Made by a program: the position numbers and the translations under genes. A DNA stretch of 64,000 nt. Origin: Nitrospirota bacterium. GTDB taxonomy: Bacteria; Nitrospirota; UBA9217. The notes under the pieces are model-generated. The model made no database searches. It was not told the origin of the DNA and saw only the letters and a list, made by a program, of their open reading frames with translations. Shown here one piece after another: positions 5,405-49,012 of the stretch; the first letter of the stretch is position 1; every line of letters starts with the position of its first letter. The stretch covers positions 1,504,001-1,568,000 of the forward strand of contig OY760142.1 in assembly GCA_963663225.1 (NCBI GenBank). Direction: 5' to 3'.

Positions 5405-5681
5405 CCATTGCCTGGGCGCGGAAACACGAGCACGTTTCTCGCTGGTTCAAACTTGCAAATGAACTGTTTCCGCGTCCAGCTACCCTTTTTCTTTACAATT
5501 TTCTCCCCTCGATTATTCCCCGAAAAATTGGGTGACCATGCTTCTGCGCGGCCAGCAGGAAATGCATCTTTTTGTGACATGTTTTACCCCGGTTTGCCAA
5601 AATTTCTGGTTAGCCTTGTTTTTTTGTTTCCTGATGTATCCAGGTTGGTGTATAATTATGAAAAACGACGCAGGGGTGAGC

Positions 5682-6443
5682 ATGGCAACAAATACATCGC
5701 GGAAGAAACAAGACACGGTGACGAGATCGGACCAATTTTTATTGATTGTAGAAAGCGAGCCAGATAATCTCAATTACGTGTCCGCGCTTCTCACGCGGTT
5801 TAAGTACCAGACCCGTACTGCAGCAAGTGCTGCCGAAGCCTCGGCAATTATCGCAGAAACAGTACCGCCACTCGTAATTACATCGGCGTTTCTCCAGGAT
5901 ATGGACGGAGTGGAATTTATCAAACAACTGAAGAACGACCCGCGTACTGCCCACGTTCCCTGTATTGCATTAACCAGAGAAGGAGACCTGTACCAGGAAG
6001 CGCGCTGCTTTGAAGCAGGGGCAGCAGAATGCTTCTCCCACCCGATTTCCGCCGAACTGCTGTACAGGACCGTACAAGCCATAATCGAACCGACGCCACG
6101 CAAAAACATGCGGGTTCAGACTATGCATCCGGTGAAAGTGACCAATACGCCACGTGACGAGCGGGAAGGTATCTATACTCTGGATCTGTCGGAGCAGGGG
6201 ATGTTTGTCCGCACAGCTGAGCCCGCCCCTCTTCATACGCGGCTTTCCCTCCAGCTGGATCTTGAAGGTCAGACGATTCCGTTGGAGGCTGCTGTTTTGT
6301 ACCAGTGCAGAGGAGACGCAAACCCGTATCACGAACCAGGGATGGGATTGGGTTTTGTCCAGATAACACAAGAAGATCAGGAATATCTCCGAAAGTTCAT
6401 ACTGGAAGAAGTCATGCGGGGCATTCCTCACGGGCATGCATGA
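5682..6443 (+). CDS. Atypical receiver + PilZ domain protein (paralog 1)
   Basis: REC-like N-terminus; PilZ RKNMR and DLSEQG; start chosen downstream of TATAAT at 5651. Confidence 0.8.
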   Translation: MATNTSRKKQDTVTRSDQFLLIVESEPDNLNYVSALLTRFKYQTRTAASAAEASAIIAETVPPLVITSAFLQDMDGVEFIKQLKNDPRTAHVPCIALTREGDLYQEARCFEAGAAECFSHPISAELLYRTVQAIIEPTPRKNMRVQTMHPVKVTNTPRDEREGIYTLDLSEQGMFVRTAEPAPLHTRLSLQLDLEGQTIPLEAAVLYQCRGDANPYHEPGMGLGFVQITQEDQEYLRKFILEEVMRGIPHGHA

Positions 6444-6523: not shown

Positions 6524-7288
6524 TTGACTGACAACAAATCACAGAAGAAAACTCCGGGCAATCTTGATCGAAAAAGCCGTTTCCTGCTGGTGATAGACAG
6601 CAATGCCGAGAACGTTTCCCACTTATCCGCACTGCTTCGTCGTTTTAATTATCCGACATTCTGTGCTCCCACTGCAAAAGAGGCCCTTGAAATCGCGGCA
6701 ACCGCAGTTCCTCTCCTTATTCTTATTTCCCTCGACTGTTTAGAAATGGACGGCTATGATCTCATGCGGCGGTTTAGGGAATCCCCACAGACTGCCGCTG
6801 TTCCCTTAATTGCATTGAGCAAGCAGCAGGATAGGACTGTAAGAACACGGTGCCTGGATCTGGGAGCAGTCGGCTGCCTCTTTTATCCGATTTCCGCCGA
6901 AGCATTGTACCGGGTTGTCCAGGTTGCTATAGAAAAAAACCCGCGTTCCTGCATGCGTATTCAGACGAACCAGCCGGTAAAAGTAAATGATATAAAGCAT
7001 GACAGCCTGTATGGCGCATATACGCTGGATCTGTCAGAGCGCGGCATGTTCCTTCGAACGGCTAATCCCGCGTCTGCAAAAACGAAGCTTCCGCTTCAAC
7101 TTGACTTGAACGGCAGAATTATTAATACCGAGGGAGAAGTGCTCTACAGCTGCAAAGCGGGTGATGAGCCGTATAAAGAACCGGGGATCGGCCTTAAGTT
7201 CACCCAGCTTGAATCAAAAGACCGGGAATATCTCCGGAATTTTATCAGCGAAGAAGTTGCGCGAGATAAGGCAGAGGACGAAAAATAG
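6524..7288 (+). CDS. Atypical receiver + PilZ domain protein (paralog 2)
   Basis: RSCMR, DLSERG, PGIGLKF. Confidence 0.8.
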   Translation: MTDNKSQKKTPGNLDRKSRFLLVIDSNAENVSHLSALLRRFNYPTFCAPTAKEALEIAATAVPLLILISLDCLEMDGYDLMRRFRESPQTAAVPLIALSKQQDRTVRTRCLDLGAVGCLFYPISAEALYRVVQVAIEKNPRSCMRIQTNQPVKVNDIKHDSLYGAYTLDLSERGMFLRTANPASAKTKLPLQLDLNGRIINTEGEVLYSCKAGDEPYKEPGIGLKFTQLESKDREYLRNFISEEVARDKAEDEK

Positions 7289-7385: not shown

Positions 7386-8147
7386 ATGGCGAACTATGAT
7401 TCTGCCAAGCCTTTATACCGGCACACGCTTGGAAAACCTACCATCCTTGTTGTGGATGGCGACCTCAACAGCAGCTTTTACATGACCACCCTGCTGAAAC
7501 GGTTCAACTATGAGCCCTGCACGGCAAGAACCGTCGACGAAGCCCTCGACATGACGGTGAGCATGAAAATCTCTCTTCTCATCGTATCGTTGTCTTTAAG
7601 GAATATGGATGGCCCTGAGATCGTGCAGCGCTTTAAGACGAGTTCGGCAACTGAGACCATTCCTCTTCTTGGACTCTCGAGAAAAAACGATCCGGCCATG
7701 ATGCACTGTTGCATGCAAGCCGGGGCGGCTGATTGCCTTGTGCAGCCGGTTCCCGCTGAGCAACTGTACCGAACCGTCCAGAAGGCAACCGAAGCAAAAC
7801 CACGGAAGGACATCCGCATTCGGACGCTCCAACCGGTAAAAATAGGCCAATCGTTGCCCGAAACGTTTGAGGCCGCATGCATCCTTGATTTGTCGGAACG
7901 CGGGGTGTTTTTACATGCCATGAAACAACCCCCCGTAAACGCAACACTCTCTCTGCACATTGATCTGAATCACGTTATTATTCCGGTAGAGGCAGTGGTT
8001 GTATACAGTTATCAGGCTCCGGGCGGCCCCTCTCCGAGAGTGGGAATGGGGCTTGAGTTTGTAAAAATCGCCCCGGAAGACCAGGGATATATCCGGCAGT
8101 TTATCCGAGACGAAGTGACGCGGGGGATCGCACCTGTCAGTGCCTGA
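7386..8147 (+). CDS. Atypical receiver + PilZ domain protein (paralog 3)
   Basis: RKDIR, DLSERG, GMGLEF. Confidence 0.8.
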   Translation: MANYDSAKPLYRHTLGKPTILVVDGDLNSSFYMTTLLKRFNYEPCTARTVDEALDMTVSMKISLLIVSLSLRNMDGPEIVQRFKTSSATETIPLLGLSRKNDPAMMHCCMQAGAADCLVQPVPAEQLYRTVQKATEAKPRKDIRIRTLQPVKIGQSLPETFEAACILDLSERGVFLHAMKQPPVNATLSLHIDLNHVIIPVEAVVVYSYQAPGGPSPRVGMGLEFVKIAPEDQGYIRQFIRDEVTRGIAPVSA

Positions 8148-43005: not shown

Positions 43006-44361
43006 ATGAACAGCACGAACCTGAAGAAAATACTCATTGCCTGCATTATTTGTTCAGTATCCATCCTGGCACTGCCTGCTTATGCGGAAGATGAACCTCT
43101 TGCGTACTCCCTGTCCTTCACGGACGCAGAACTGGATGACCTGCTTGCGCCTATCGCGCTCTATCCCGATCCCTTGCTGGCGCAGATGCTGCCTGCTTCC
43201 ACGTATCCAACAGAAATAATTGACGCGGATGAATGGCTTCGAAGCGGAGGCACGGTGGCAGGTATTGACGGCCAGAACTGGGACGAATCCGTCAAGGCAA
43301 TTGCCCACTATCCCGACGTCCTGAGGATGATGGCCGACAATATGGACTGGACCGCCAATCTGGGCGATGCTTTTTTGAACCAACCTGAGGATGTGTCAAG
43401 ATCAATCCAGCATCTGAGGCGGCAGGCAAGAGACATGGGCAACCTGTCCAGTAATGATAAACAGAGTGTGGACATTCTTGAAGAAGGCAACATCGAAATC
43501 ATTCCTGCTCAGCCGCAGTATGTGTATGTCCCGGTGTATGATCCTACCGTCGTGTATTTCAGGCGGCCGTCGCTGAGCATTCCGCCATTTATACTCTTCG
43601 GTCCTCCATTTCTCCTCGGCGGATGGCTCATCATGGATTTTAACTGGGGGCACCATGAGGTGATTTATCATGGCTGGAACCGTCCCGGCTGGGTCAATCA
43701 TGCAAGACCGTATGTACACGTGACGAATGTATATGTTAACAGAAGCAGGCCCGCCATTCAGCAGCGATGGAGGCATGATGCATCTCACGGCGACCCTGCA
43801 AAATATCTTATGACGCGGCCCAGTGGTCCGAAAGCAGACAGCTACTCCCGTATCGGCGAAGTCAGGGGAAAAGCCGTTGTTACACAACCCAAACCGGCCG
43901 GAAGGCTGTTCGATTCCAAGTCCGGTGTTCACACATATAGTAATCGCGGCAGGGAGAGCCGCGGCATAGTGCAGCAGCAAACGTCTCCATCGGCAATGCC
44001 CGGCACCAGTCCGCGAAGGACCATTCCGACGCCCCGCGTGAACGAGCGACCGACGGCACCTGCTCCCGCAGTTAGTCAACCGGTCCAGAAACCTGCTCAG
44101 CAGAGACCGGCAGGAATCAGCAGTGATAAAAAAATGACGAGCGGCACCGGACCTGCTCGTGAGGCACCACAAACCATAAAGCGGCCTTCGACCGCTTTCG
44201 GAGGTTACCGCGGTGCAGACGAGGCCAGAGCACAGAGTATGCGCGGCCAGACCAGCCGTCAGAGCAGCGCAGGCGGTGCTTCATCTACCGTCCACCCGCC
44301 AAATCGGGGCGGCAATCCTCCCGCAGGCGGGCATTCATCGGGAGAAAAGCAACGTCGATAA
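43006..44361 (+). CDS. DUF3300 domain protein
   Basis: LAPIALYPDPLLAQML, WDESVKA, YVPVYDP; low-complexity tail. Confidence 0.88.
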   Translation: MNSTNLKKILIACIICSVSILALPAYAEDEPLAYSLSFTDAELDDLLAPIALYPDPLLAQMLPASTYPTEIIDADEWLRSGGTVAGIDGQNWDESVKAIAHYPDVLRMMADNMDWTANLGDAFLNQPEDVSRSIQHLRRQARDMGNLSSNDKQSVDILEEGNIEIIPAQPQYVYVPVYDPTVVYFRRPSLSIPPFILFGPPFLLGGWLIMDFNWGHHEVIYHGWNRPGWVNHARPYVHVTNVYVNRSRPAIQQRWRHDASHGDPAKYLMTRPSGPKADSYSRIGEVRGKAVVTQPKPAGRLFDSKSGVHTYSNRGRESRGIVQQQTSPSAMPGTSPRRTIPTPRVNERPTAPAPAVSQPVQKPAQQRPAGISSDKKMTSGTGPAREAPQTIKRPSTAFGGYRGADEARAQSMRGQTSRQSSAGGASSTVHPPNRGGNPPAGGHSSGEKQRR

Positions 44362-44413
44362 GAAATGTGAACGTTGGTAAAAGGATATTTTTTGCAGAGA
44401 AAGGAAGCATATT

Positions 44414-45382
44414 ATGGCGACAAAGACCGGCAAGAAAACATTCCAGAATACTGCGCACGCGGTTGCTTTATTTATAATATGTGCGGCAATAATCACGATC
44501 GGGAGCATGTCGGTTACAGCGCAACCAACGCAGCAGGTATTCTCGTCTCCGGAGGATGCATTGAAAGAATTGGCAGCGGCAGTTAAAACGAAAGACAAAA
44601 CCGCGCTTGCCCGCATATTCGGGCCGTCCGGAGAAGAACTGCGCGCTACTGACGCGGTGCAGGCTGCCGCTGAATTCGAAGAATTTTCGAAATTATTGAC
44701 GATGAAGGCAAGCTTGGTTAAAGAGAATGAGTCGAAAGTGGTCCTTTATATAGGAAATGAAAACTGGCCGTTTCCAATCCCGCTGATTAAAACGAACAAT
44801 CAGTGGGTTTTTGATACAGAAGCAGGGAAAGAAGAAATTTTGAACCGCAGAATTGGCGAGAACGAGCTGACGGCCATCCTGGTTTGCCGTTCCTATGTAA
44901 AAGCCCAGCGTGAGTACGTACTGAAAGACTGGGATGGTGATGGAATTTTGGCGTACGCACAGAAGCTCCGGAGCGATCCGAACAAAAAGAACGGCCTCTT
45001 CTGGAAACGGGTTCCGGGCGAACCGGTAAGCCCTCTTGGTGAACTCGTGGCGCAGGCCCGGATGGAGGGATACCGGAAGGAAAAGTCGTTATTTAAAGAA
45101 GAGCCGGTGCCTTTTCACGGCTATTACTTTAACATCCTCACGAAACAGGGCAAACGCGCACCGGGAGGGAAATATAGTTACATTGTAAATGGAAATATGG
45201 TCGGGGGATTTGCTCTTGTTGCCTTTCCGGCGGACTGGGGCAAATCGGGAGTAATGACTTTTATTGTGAATCAACAAGGCAAGGTGTACCAGAAAAATCT
45301 CGGAGAAGAAACTCTGAAGATGGCCTCGAAAATGAAGATATACGATCCTGACGAGACATGGGCACTCGTTAAGGGCCAATAA
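44414..45382 (+). CDS. DUF2950 domain protein
   Basis: WPFPIPL, RRIGENE, PFHGYYF, GVMTFIVN; usual partner of DUF3300. Confidence 0.88.
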   Translation: MATKTGKKTFQNTAHAVALFIICAAIITIGSMSVTAQPTQQVFSSPEDALKELAAAVKTKDKTALARIFGPSGEELRATDAVQAAAEFEEFSKLLTMKASLVKENESKVVLYIGNENWPFPIPLIKTNNQWVFDTEAGKEEILNRRIGENELTAILVCRSYVKAQREYVLKDWDGDGILAYAQKLRSDPNKKNGLFWKRVPGEPVSPLGELVAQARMEGYRKEKSLFKEEPVPFHGYYFNILTKQGKRAPGGKYSYIVNGNMVGGFALVAFPADWGKSGVMTFIVNQQGKVYQKNLGEETLKMASKMKIYDPDETWALVKGQ

Positions 45383-45654: not shown

Positions 45655-45826
45655 ATACCTAAGCAGTATGTGCGCTTGACGCACATACAAAACTAAACAG
45701 CTCTTATTAATTCAAAATCCAACGTCAATTTAAGAATAAAACTCATACTGCCAATTGATTAAAAAGTTCCGAGCTTCTTTGACAGGTGGCCTTTAAGAAG
45801 CTACAATTTCCCCTAAAGGAGGTATT

Positions 45827-47083
45827 ATGAGGAAAATCGTCATATGCGCCAGCCTGCTGTTCGTAATCCTTCTTGCGTATTCTGCTTCCCCTGCCTACTC
45901 AAAGTCAAGCCAGCCCCAAATTAACGCTTGTGTTGCGTGTCATACCAGCGACCAAACCTTAAAGAAGCTGTTCATACCCCCCAAGGTCCAGGCCTCGGAA
46001 GGAGAAGGGTGAGCAGGGGTGCCACCGTCAGTTCCGGCGGAACTGATGTACAAGGCGTTCCTGGTTGACAAGGATTTGCTTGATCAGGACGCGCATTTTT
46101 CAGAAGGTTGCAGCCCGTGCCACAAAGGCAATGAAAAAGGAAAAGGCAAGGAAGGGGCACACCGCGGCATGGTAAAACGGCCGTCAGATAATCTTGCTGT
46201 CTGCGGAAAATGCCATGAGGATACTTCGCAGCATTACAAAACAGCTCTTCACTATACCTCAGCAGGCCAGATGCATGGAGTCAAGGCGAGATTCAATGAG
46301 AAGGAATTCAAAGCATTTGATCAGAAAGTCTTTGGAAAATCCTGCAGGAGCTGCCATGCATCCTGCGGAGATTGCCATGTAAAATCTCCATCCATAGGAG
46401 GCATCGGAACAGGATTTATCAAGGGGCACCAGTTCGTAAAACGTGATGAAGGAAAAACATGCGGTATCTGCCACGGAGGCAGAGTGTATCCGGAATACAC
46501 CGGCGACTATGGCGGCTCAGCAGACGTCCATTACCAGAAAGGAATGCTCTGTCTGGACTGCCATAAAAAATCGGAACTGCATGGCAATGGTACGGCTTAT
46601 CAAGGAAGAAAGGAAGTCCAGGGACGGCCTGCCTGCGTTCAATGCCATCCCCGGGGCAGTGAAAAAACGGACACCTCGAAGACCGCCCATGTCCAGCATG
46701 GAGACAAGGTGAGTTGCTATGCGTGCCATTCAGGGGGAACCTACAGAAACTGCTACGACTGCCACCTTGGGAAGGGTGCATCATCAAAACCCGGCTTTAT
46801 CCTGGGAATAGATCCACAGAATAAAAAAACCGTTACTACCCTGAGACTGATACCAACCGTACGGGACACATTCAAACCGGCAGGAATTTCTATGGCAGGT
46901 TTTGATGCGCTCCCGAACTACTGGGGCACGTCGCCTCACAATATCAAAAAGCGCACCGAACGCACCCGGTCGTGTGACGTGTGCCATCAGGAGCACAAGG
47001 ATTTTCTGACAAAAGAAGGATTGATACCAAACGGTTCCAAGGCGAATGAAGGCCTAATTTATGACTTTAAACTCAATAAATAA
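45827..47083 (+). CDS. Exported 11-heme c-type cytochrome with predicted selenocysteine (UGA 46010-46012, codon 62), 418 aa
   Basis: Two same-frame ORFs joined by one TGA; signal peptide + CVACH before it, 10 CxxCH after; SECIS-like hairpin follows. Confidence 0.82.
46013..46047 (+). promoter_or_regulatory. Bacterial SECIS-like element
   Basis: GTCAGTTCC-GGC-GGAACTGAT stem-loop; apical G 23 nt after the UGA. Confidence 0.72.
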
Positions 47084-47096
47084 AAGGAGGATGCTT

Positions 47097-47993
47097 ATGA
47101 TCAGGAAACGTATGCTGCAAATGCTGGTGTTGGTTCTTATTGTGATGCTGGTGCCCGTGGTGGCGGCAGCACGGGATGCCGCCCCGATTGTATCAACAGA
47201 CTGGCTCGAAAAGAACCTGAAAAACAACAATGTGGTGATTATCGATATTCGGAAGGTGGAAGAATACAAGGCAGGCCACATTCCCGGAGCGGTTAATGCG
47301 GTCTATGGAACATGGGCGATTATGAAGGGTGGCCTGAGAAATGAGCTGCCCGCAGCAGATGACTTGTTTGATGCAATTGGTGCCGCAGGTATTGAGCCGA
47401 CATCAAGCGTGGTTGTCGTAGGGAATGTTGAAACAACACCCGATCGCACCGATGTTACGAGAGTTGCTTGGACACTCAAGTACGCAGGCATTGAAAATGT
47501 TGCACTGCTCGATGGTGGTTATAAAAAATGGTTGGCGGATAAAAAGACGATATCTACCGACGTGGTGAAAGCAAAAACAAAAACATACAAAGGAAAAATC
47601 AATGCCAATCTTTTTACGAACAAAGACTATGTGTTAAGCCAACTTGGTAAGGCAACAATTGTCGATGTCAGGGAAAAAGATTTTTACGAGGGCAAGAAAA
47701 AATTCGATTTTGTAGCTAAAGCAGGAAGAGTCCCCGGCGCAAAGAATTTGCCCACCTCACTTCCTTATACAAAAGAGGGGACATTCAAGGACAAAGCAGA
47801 ACTTACTGCGATTGCGGCGAATGTTGTGGGAACCGATGTATCAAAAGAAATAATCACCTATTGTGATACAGGCAAAGTATGTTCAGCCTGGACATTCTTG
47901 CTGTCTGAAGTCCTTGGATACAAGAATGTAAAGGATTACGACGGTTCTATGGAAGAATGGACAAAAGATCCTAAGGCTCCGTTCGAACCGTAA
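47097..47993 (+). CDS. Exported tandem-domain rhodanese/sulfurtransferase
   Basis: Signal peptide, VSTDWL, GHIPGA, LLDGG, GRVPGA, active-site YCDTG, YDGSMEEW; AGGAGG RBS. Confidence 0.92.
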   Translation: MIRKRMLQMLVLVLIVMLVPVVAAARDAAPIVSTDWLEKNLKNNNVVIIDIRKVEEYKAGHIPGAVNAVYGTWAIMKGGLRNELPAADDLFDAIGAAGIEPTSSVVVVGNVETTPDRTDVTRVAWTLKYAGIENVALLDGGYKKWLADKKTISTDVVKAKTKTYKGKINANLFTNKDYVLSQLGKATIVDVREKDFYEGKKKFDFVAKAGRVPGAKNLPTSLPYTKEGTFKDKAELTAIAANVVGTDVSKEIITYCDTGKVCSAWTFLLSEVLGYKNVKDYDGSMEEWTKDPKAPFEP

Positions 47994-48038: not shown

Positions 48039-48238
48039 TCCACCTGCGCTTAGTCCTCAGCGCCATCCTTCTCCGTGTCTTTTGCCACGATGCTTTCCAG
48101 CCCCAAAATACGCCTTTTATAGCCGAAACAGGTATTGCACAAGAAAAATTAAAGTATTAAATACCCATTTCGGGCGATTTACTTTCACGGAAGACTATGG
48201 TATGTCATCTGTTAACGATATTGAAGAGGGCATACGAG

Positions 48239-49012
48239 ATGAAAAATGATGGTGAATTTACGCAAGACGGTACCGAACAAAGAAAACATACCCTGCTAAT
48301 TCTCGACAGAGAGCCGCAAGAACTTATTCGAATGTCAAAGCTCTTTGAGCGAATAGGTTATCAAACCGCTACAGCTAGGATGGGTTGCGAGGCATTCAAG
48401 ACAGTAAAGAAGATAATTCCAAACCTGATTCTTACTGCGATGGACCTTGAAGATATGAGTGGAATTGCATTCATTAGTCAGCTCAGCCAAAACAGAAAAA
48501 CAGAACATATTCCAATCGTTGTTTTGAAAGGTCCCCAGGATCTTGCCAGGGAACAAGATTATCTTGGCGCTGGCGCAGCGGTTTGCCTGTGTAAGTCGTC
48601 TTCGATCGAAACGATGTATCAAACAATGCAGAGACTCCAGAAGAAAGAATTGCGGGAAAAAATCCGCATTCAAACGCATCACCCTGTTAAGATTGAGACT
48701 GCCCCGTTCTGCGATCATTATGGCATGCACACACTGACGTTATCGGAACGGGGGATGTTTCTTTTCAGCAGGGTGCATGCCCCTGAAAATACCAGGCTTG
48801 CGCTCCGTATTAATCTACAAGGACTTATCATTGCGGCCGAAGCCAGGGTTTTGTACAATGGCCGGTCACGACGTAGTTCTCATCAGGAGCCCGGGTTAGG
48901 GCTTGAATTTATTACTATTGGACCTCAAGACCGGGAATGCATACGGACATTCATAAACAATGAAATAATGAAAGACATTCAGCCGAAAATTAGCCTGCAG
49001 CTATCTGCTTGA
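48239..49012 (+). CDS. Atypical receiver + PilZ domain protein (paralog 4)
   Basis: REKIR, TLSERG, EPGLGLEF; clearly similar to the 5682-8147 paralogs. Confidence 0.8.
   Translation: MKNDGEFTQDGTEQRKHTLLILDREPQELIRMSKLFERIGYQTATARMGCEAFKTVKKIIPNLILTAMDLEDMSGIAFISQLSQNRKTEHIPIVVLKGPQDLAREQDYLGAGAAVCLCKSSSIETMYQTMQRLQKKELREKIRIQTHHPVKIETAPFCDHYGMHTLTLSERGMFLFSRVHAPENTRLALRINLQGLIIAAEARVLYNGRSRRSSHQEPGLGLEFITIGPQDRECIRTFINNEIMKDIQPKISLQLSA

Follow-up and report, generated by a model that had tools for sequence, protein, structure and literature searches.

Selenocysteine in multihaem cytochromes

Two kinds of multihaem cytochrome are the closest described systems for the gene considered here, which lies at positions 45827-47083 of a 64,000-nucleotide stretch (the window, in whose numbering all positions are given) of a Nitrospirota bacterium genome and is predicted to encode an exported cytochrome containing selenocysteine (Sec). 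The better characterised of the two is MccSep, or ExtKL (GSU2937-2936), a Sec-containing polysulfide reductase of Geobacter sulfurreducens (Mihara et al. 2026, PMC13510729). That paper gives it 5 haems, places Sec325 in an Ig-like domain at the C-terminus and describes a catalytic haem (haem 2) that is His/Cys-ligated by way of a conserved Cys. The other is the octahaem tetrathionate reductase (OTR) family, which is listed with Sec-containing members in a 2026 selenoproteome review (PMC13188914), and in the searched part of the review's table the haem-related selenoproteins are ExtKL, GSU2204 and OTR-type cytochromes.

The locus in the window resembles both of these systems and is neither. It is concluded, with good confidence, that 45827-47083 on the forward strand is one gene for a Sec-containing exported cytochrome with 11 haems that is a remote homologue of OTR, and its in-frame UGA is very likely decoded as Sec, as judged by comparison of sequences. 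The gene represents a selenoprotein family of its own within a kind that is already known, the Sec-containing multihaem cytochromes. Full-text literature searches, with the supplements of PMC13510729 and PMC13188914 outside their scope, returned no published description of an 11-haem Sec cytochrome. What is new here is the remote homology to OTR with a relocated Sec, the finding of Cys in place of Sec among distant relatives, the constraint on silent sites that points to a selenocysteine insertion sequence (SECIS) and a competing hairpin in this genus.

One reading frame across a conserved UGA

The first 61 codons of the gene (45827-46009, from the ATG at 45827) encode a hydrophobic N-terminus, judged by eye to be a signal peptide of about residues 1-25, and the first haem motif, CVACH, at residues 35-39 (45929-45943). 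The TGA that follows at 46010-46012 is succeeded directly by GCA GGG and then by the GTG at 46019 that opens a 354-aa open reading frame (ORF). Past the TGA, 356 codons continue in the same frame to the TAA at 47081-47083, and this remainder of the gene (46013-47083) holds ten more CxxCH motifs, haems 2-11. An original prediction made from the window's sequence had joined the two same-frame ORFs (45827-46009 and 46019-47083) through the TGA, listed the ten downstream motifs and placed Sec62 in a Gly/Glu-rich stretch between haems 1 and 2, and the reading of the frame agrees with it throughout; counting the TGA as a residue gives a product of 418 residues with 11 haem motifs. An export signal is present only on the upstream ORF, and it is this ORF that is preceded by a ribosome-binding site, the Shine-Dalgarno sequence AGGAGG read at 45817-45822 (forward strand, 4 nt 5' of the ATG), and by a near-consensus sigma-70-like promoter, TTGACA-17 nt-TACAAT (45779-45807, forward strand, 20 nt 5' of the start codon), recognised by its consensus match only, at 11 of 12 positions.

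The in-frame UGA is conserved among orthologues. In a scan of one genome per species 250 stretches encoding relatives were found, the best 80 of which were kept as loci, mostly from Syntrophorhabdaceae, Syntrophales and Smithella, and TGA stands at the column of residue 62 in 79 of these 80 loci from other species, the lone exception being a CGA (locus L067). Neither TAA nor TAG occurs at this column among the 80 loci and the frame does not change at it, so that the comparison of homologues proposed with the original prediction favours the UGA being read. The TGA is the single in-frame stop in all 59 of the TGA-bearing frames that were checked, of about 400 codons each, and the upstream frame is open and has a CxxCH motif in 72 of 73 homologous loci. 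The peptide around the UGA is also maintained in the family, as EGEG-U-AG(A/P)PP(P/S)V, with frame and spacing constant in the 80 loci, and two congeners, 96% and 85% identical, retain the TGA. A more distant paralogue (L012, on G017:C45, from another genus of the same taxonomic family) has 495 codons, 34% identity and 11 CxxCH motifs, with an in-frame TGA after haem 1 and a rhodanese gene downstream, which suggests that deep branches of the superfamily share the Sec form.

Residues that replace Sec in relatives were also sought. When 1.84 billion cluster representatives were searched with a profile, 1213 were hit, and among the best 150 hits, which were examined, 42 distant relatives cover the N-terminus. 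In 14 of the 42 a Cys occurs 20-29 residues past the haem-1 His, where Sec lies at 23, in motifs such as GEGCGG and EDGCA, and the Cys that was to be looked for at the junction column of homologues is found in this distant group. A word-indexed search with residues 22-73 by themselves returned no match. Within the close family seven full-length database records have R, W, Y, S, A, W and A at the Sec column. The R variant is a genuine CGA codon in L067, where the hairpin described below is largely kept and where no tRNA-Sec scored above the cut-off in a genome whose assembly is incomplete, and Y, S, A and A were seen in protein records only. A Trp at this column was considered on the strength of record P0033 and was rejected; locus L096 encodes P0033 exactly under translation table 4, with TGA as the codon, so this W is an artefact of gene calling. 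The second W stands in record P0076.

Database annotation has divided the gene, as had been foreseen. Among the 120 best database homologues 112 have 328-362 residues and are N-terminally truncated at the junction, most of the truncated records beginning at a Met 12 codons past the TGA. With starts past the TGA these records lack the signal peptide, haem 1 and Sec. The start sites differ from record to record (MYK..., MPAES..., VPAES... and others). A single record of 632 aa, P0068, has an N-terminally truncated cytochrome fused to a mature rhodanese that is 59% identical to the one in the window; the fusion may be genuine or may have arisen in assembly.

The hairpin downstream of the UGA

A SECIS-like hairpin directly after the UGA is found by comparison of both sequence and fold, and in the window two mutually exclusive forms of it can be drawn on the forward strand. 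The stem-loop of the original prediction exists as it was drawn, a 10-bp stem formed by CGUCAGUUCC (46026-46035) and GGAACUGAUG (46039-46048) and closed by the loop GGC (46036-46038), with 23 nt between the UGA and the first G of the loop. It is identical in the two congeners. The hairpin that is conserved across the family is shorter and shifted in register, at 46025-46040, and has 5 bp here and the loop AGUUCC, with G at +22 and U at +23. The 10-bp form (46026-46048) is the more stable of the two in this window, at -13.8 kcal/mol vs -6.9 kcal/mol for the family register. By itself it is modestly unusual (z = -2.42 over a 76-nt segment, with 4 of 200 shuffles folding equally well), and the evidential weight of the hairpin comes from comparison with relatives and not from the window by itself.

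That comparison shows constraint at silent sites. In 70 distinct sequences the entropy of the third position drops from 1.97-1.99 bits at codons +2 (Gly) and +3 (Ala) to 0.36, 0.55, 0.19 and 0.00 bits at codons +4, +5, +8 and +9, the codons that make up both arms of the hairpin. In an alignment of 77 sequences hairpin columns 20-26 pair with columns 33-39 in 84.4% of cells, whereas sliding the partners lowers this to 26-54%. Double-sided changes are seen at four pairs (10 cells), and the observed covariation score was reached by none of 500 shuffles, in a control that does not preserve the relatedness of the sequences. RNAalifold finds the core of the family stem again. The family loop has 6 nt, NGUNNN, in which the G at +22 and the U at +23, counted from the U of the UGA, are invariant, and in L012 a strong 7-bp stem of unrelated sequence again places G and U at +22 and +23. 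Rfam gave no match at the gathering score in the window and only chance-level rows at the junction.

In the SECIS element of Escherichia coli fdhF, G23 and U24 are exposed in the apical loop. The family hairpin is like it in beginning about a dozen nucleotides past the UGA and in exposing a G-U, here G22/U23. It is unlike it in having a 6-bp stem and a 6-nt loop with no bulged U evident and, in this window, in facing a competing 10-bp stem that buries the G-U.

In one sequencing run (X2) a 5-kb contig from another organism matches the window only at 45995-46041, 47 nt that take in the junction and the hairpin, with 6 differences. Nucleotide conservation of the junction stretch thus extends to different organisms within a single sample.

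Selenocysteine machinery and sequence quality

The presence of selA, selB, selC and selD, which the original prediction had named as a check on Sec decoding, was confirmed in full. The genome has selA (597 bits) and an adjacent selB (376 bits), a selD with an in-frame TGA of its own, and a tRNA-Sec that scores 62.8 bits and is called by ARAGORN as SeC with anticodon tca. In four TGA-bearing genomes of other lineages tRNA-Sec was above the cut-off in all four and selA was found in three.

Outside the window, a second tRNA-Sec-like match lies directly 3' of selD on the minus strand, at G000:C1:522308-522451 (L002:1501-1644), and scores 48.9 bits with RF01852, where the cut-off is 47. The anticodon in its loop, CUGCAAA, is GCA, which reads Cys codons, and the variable arm is lengthened by an insertion of about 55 nt; ARAGORN called no tRNA there. 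We take this locus to resemble the tRNA-Sec-like Cys tRNAs.

The possibility that the TGA at 46010 is a sequencing error had also been raised, and it was checked in contigs rather than in raw reads. Contigs of 3 sequencing runs from 3 studies cover 45800-47100, all with the TGA unchanged and with no indels seen. Two of the three have 19-21 differences elsewhere and none at the TGA or the hairpin, the nearest being at 45928 and 46057, and the third, nearly identical to the window, is a possible source of this assembly.

Relationship to OTR and MccSep

Searches with family models say little about the cytochrome. Pfam finds generic multihaem domains only and NCBIfam sub-threshold partial matches only, with no row at E <= 10 for NF040886 (ExtKL), NF041027 (GSU2204) or TIGR04315 (OTR), and TIGR04315, which has a curated cut-off of 375 bits, has no match in the whole genome. 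A search of PDB sequences with the family profile gave short haem-motif matches only and no MccSep chain at E <= 0.01.

The relationship emerges from profile and structure comparison. An AF2 model built with distant relatives added to the alignment has a pLDDT of 90.2 and a pTM of 0.84, with residues 51-70 at about 71; a first model, from a close-family alignment of 67 sequences, was poor (pLDDT 59.8) and was set aside. Foldseek found nothing in the PDB at E <= 0.001 for the model, OTR appearing only at E 0.045. With VIA-align the best match is OTR, chain 1sp3_A, over 258 residues between model residues 87 and 418 (Z 10.4, root-mean-square deviation 4.0 Å), the runner-up having a Z of 4.7. When the family was compared by hhalign with six TIGR04315 loci from Desulfobacterota (L109-L114), the set that represents OTR here, the probability was 98.1% with E 1.1e-13 over 188 columns, haems 3-9 of the family matching OTR haems I-VII. 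Fold and order of haem motifs are thus shared, residues of about 112-307 are homologous to the OTR core, and the profile and structural matches together make the family a remote relative of OTR.

It is apparent that the two families are alike in being periplasmic multihaem cytochromes, OTR being represented by Shewanella SO4144 (1sp3, TIGR04315), and in having Sec or Cys forms. Ahead of haem II, at a distance of 10 residues, the six OTR loci have a conserved column occupied by TGA in two of them and by Cys in four, within the motif NNF/Y-[U/C]-I/L (L110 and L114 are among these loci). The differences are as clear. OTR has 8 haems and the family 11, two of the extra haems being N-terminal and the third falling between the haems that correspond to VII and VIII of OTR. 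In the profile alignment this family has a gap opposite the 11-residue OTR loop that bears the Cys or Sec; its own Sec is placed about 110 residues nearer the N-terminus, on the two-haem extension at that end. A rhodanese partner is typical of this family, unlike OTR. Haem 4 (CRSCH, residues 173-177) is the counterpart of OTR haem II, the active-site haem of OTR, to which Lys56 is a ligand according to PMC3769277. K167 was considered as the counterpart of Lys56 and was not adopted; it is one column off and is conserved in 36 of 108 rows of the wide alignment.

The likeness to MccSep is that each is a periplasmic multihaem cytochrome c and that its gene is interrupted by an in-frame UGA with a SECIS-like hairpin after it. 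In both the Sec stands between a Gly and a Pro-rich stretch, and the MccSep cluster has a rhodanese-like gene, extH. The original prediction had contrasted the locus with MccSep for its fewer haems and late Sec, and this stands, with 5 haems and a Sec325 in the C-terminal domain of MccSep (PMC13510729), against 11 haems and Sec62 here. The family also differs in having no invariant Cys outside the haem motifs. From this, the 11 haems and the position of the Sec, it follows that the cytochrome is not MccSep, although MccSep serves as a working analogy for Sec-mediated chalcogen chemistry beside a haem. The choice of MccSep as the reference system was sound for this contrast and incomplete in another respect, as the closest relative is the OTR family, which the original prediction did not mention.

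Weighing the readings of the UGA

A number of observations weigh against decoding as Sec. The family stem is weakened in the window and in the congeners by an A-A mismatch at its outer pair, and in the more stable 10-bp stem G+22 and U+23 are paired and not looped. The hairpin signal is mostly conservation of a sequence that also codes for the conserved Pro-Pro-x-Val-x-Ala-Glu, the double changes being in just 10 of 539 alignment cells. Cys is seen in none of the 5 sense-codon variants of the close family, and the genome of the Arg variant, L067, retains selA, which speaks against loss of the Sec trait as the origin of that variant. Variants other than Cys imply that some members either can do without Sec or have taken on another function, and they count against the simple picture of an indispensable redox Cys or Sec. 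The assortment of these variants (Arg, Tyr, Ser, Ala, Ala) is at the same time what gives some credit to a reading in which the UGA would be read through without Sec by a near-cognate tRNA (for Trp, Cys or Arg) and would act as a programmed leaky stop that sets the ratio of monohaem peptide to full cytochrome. The stop is always UGA, and UGA is the leakiest of the stop codons. Such read-through would leave without explanation the conserved hairpin with G and U at +22 and +23, which recurs with a stem of different sequence in L012, as well as the Cys at the column in distant relatives, the full Sec machinery of the genome and the fact that at least one of the two records with 'Trp' is a table-4 translation of TGA, and it is considered very unlikely.

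The locus could also be divided, as the original prediction itself had cautioned, into two genes, one for a 61-residue exported monohaem peptide and one for a 354-residue protein that re-initiates at the GTG at 46019 from the ribosome-binding site GGAGAAGGG. There is a purine-rich stretch 10-19 nt 5' of this GTG, and the annotation pipelines agree with such a division in that the great majority of the best database homologues start just past the stop. The varied start sites of those records are, however, as expected of arbitrary gene calls, and the peptide is conserved on both sides of the stop (EGEG-stop-AGxPP) with the same frame and spacing at every locus. The 354-residue protein would, moreover, have 10 CxxCH motifs and yet no export signal, whereas covalent attachment of haem occurs outside the cytoplasm, and two genes are accordingly thought a most improbable arrangement. 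That the gene is a pseudogene, or its TGA an error of assembly, is scarcely credible; it has nothing in its favour beyond the in-frame stop itself, and it has to contend with the same TGA in 79 loci from other species and in the contigs of three independent studies, in a frame with no other stop or frameshift.

Sec insertion within a single gene is the preferred reading, and by this mechanism SelB and Sec-tRNA(Sec) would decode the UGA at 46010-46012, guided by the hairpin just downstream. The product would be exported by the Sec translocation route as a periplasmic cytochrome c of 418 residues and 11 haems, with Sec62 placed in the Gly/Glu-rich loop that separates haem 1 from haem 2. Its core, approximately haems 3-9, would be OTR-like and without the chalcogen loop of OTR, the Sec being borne instead on the N-terminal two-haem extension.

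The rhodanese partner and possible function

Directly downstream of the cytochrome gene, at 47097-47993 on the forward strand, is a gene for an exported tandem rhodanese (PF00581, 123 bits, in two stretches), which has the active-site loop CDTGKVCS at residues 256-263. A rhodanese adjoins the cytochrome in 66 of the 80 loci, being directly downstream on the same strand in 62 and directly upstream in 4, and wherever the match extends over the loop, in 64 of 64 loci, the catalytic Cys is retained. Apart from one cluster from 24 loci, which has no Pfam match and is suspected to consist of antisense ORFs, no neighbour besides the rhodanese recurs in more than 11 of 78 loci. No other clues to a pathway were found within the window.

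Given the homology to a tetrathionate/thiosulfate reductase, the Sec and the presence of a carrier of sulfane sulfur, the best guess at a function is reduction of a sulfur or selenium compound, for example polysulfide, thiosulfate, tetrathionate or selenite, for which the chances may be put at about even by analogy with these systems. Sec62 might act as the nucleophile, and the rhodanese, probably periplasmic and co-transcribed, might serve as the carrier of sulfane sulfur or selenium. It weighs against this assignment that it would be drawn solely from analogy and gene neighbourhood and that 14 of the 80 loci have no rhodanese in the fetched flanks, although one of these has almost no flank. 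More tentative, and on balance doubtful, is the proposal that the family represents a third, independently evolved Sec multihaem enzyme, in which the ancestral OTR-type Cys/Sec loop next to the active-site haem was lost and the Sec of a new N-terminal two-haem arm reaches back to fill its place, enzyme and rhodanese forming a Se-S relay for the reduction of sulfane sulfur or selenium.

Other genes near the locus

Directly 5' of the cytochrome gene is a pair of genes encoding DUF3300 and DUF2950 proteins (43006-45382), and the gap of 444 nt between this pair and the cytochrome gene contains the promoter-like site described above. The window also has four paralogous genes that combine a receiver domain, as in response regulators, with a PilZ domain; three are in tandem (5532-6440, 6524-7285 and 7386-8144) and the fourth (48197-49009) lies just 3' of the cytochrome-rhodanese pair.

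Implications for the family

The family has been missed both by selenoprotein catalogues and by genome annotation, even though it is present in at least 250 stretches among the scanned species genomes, many of which belong to syntrophic Desulfobacterota of digesters and sediments. With this breadth, correct annotation changes both the predicted selenium demand and the inventories of periplasmic electron transfer in such organisms. The family can naturally be set beside MccSep and OTR to compare the uses of Sec close to haems, and the cytochrome is a candidate reductase of sulfur or selenium compounds that would work together with its rhodanese. Should the tentative proposal of a relocated Sec prove true, the cytochrome and rhodanese would form an unrecognised sulfur- or selenium-respiring or detoxifying module in syntrophic and sulfate-reducing anaerobes.

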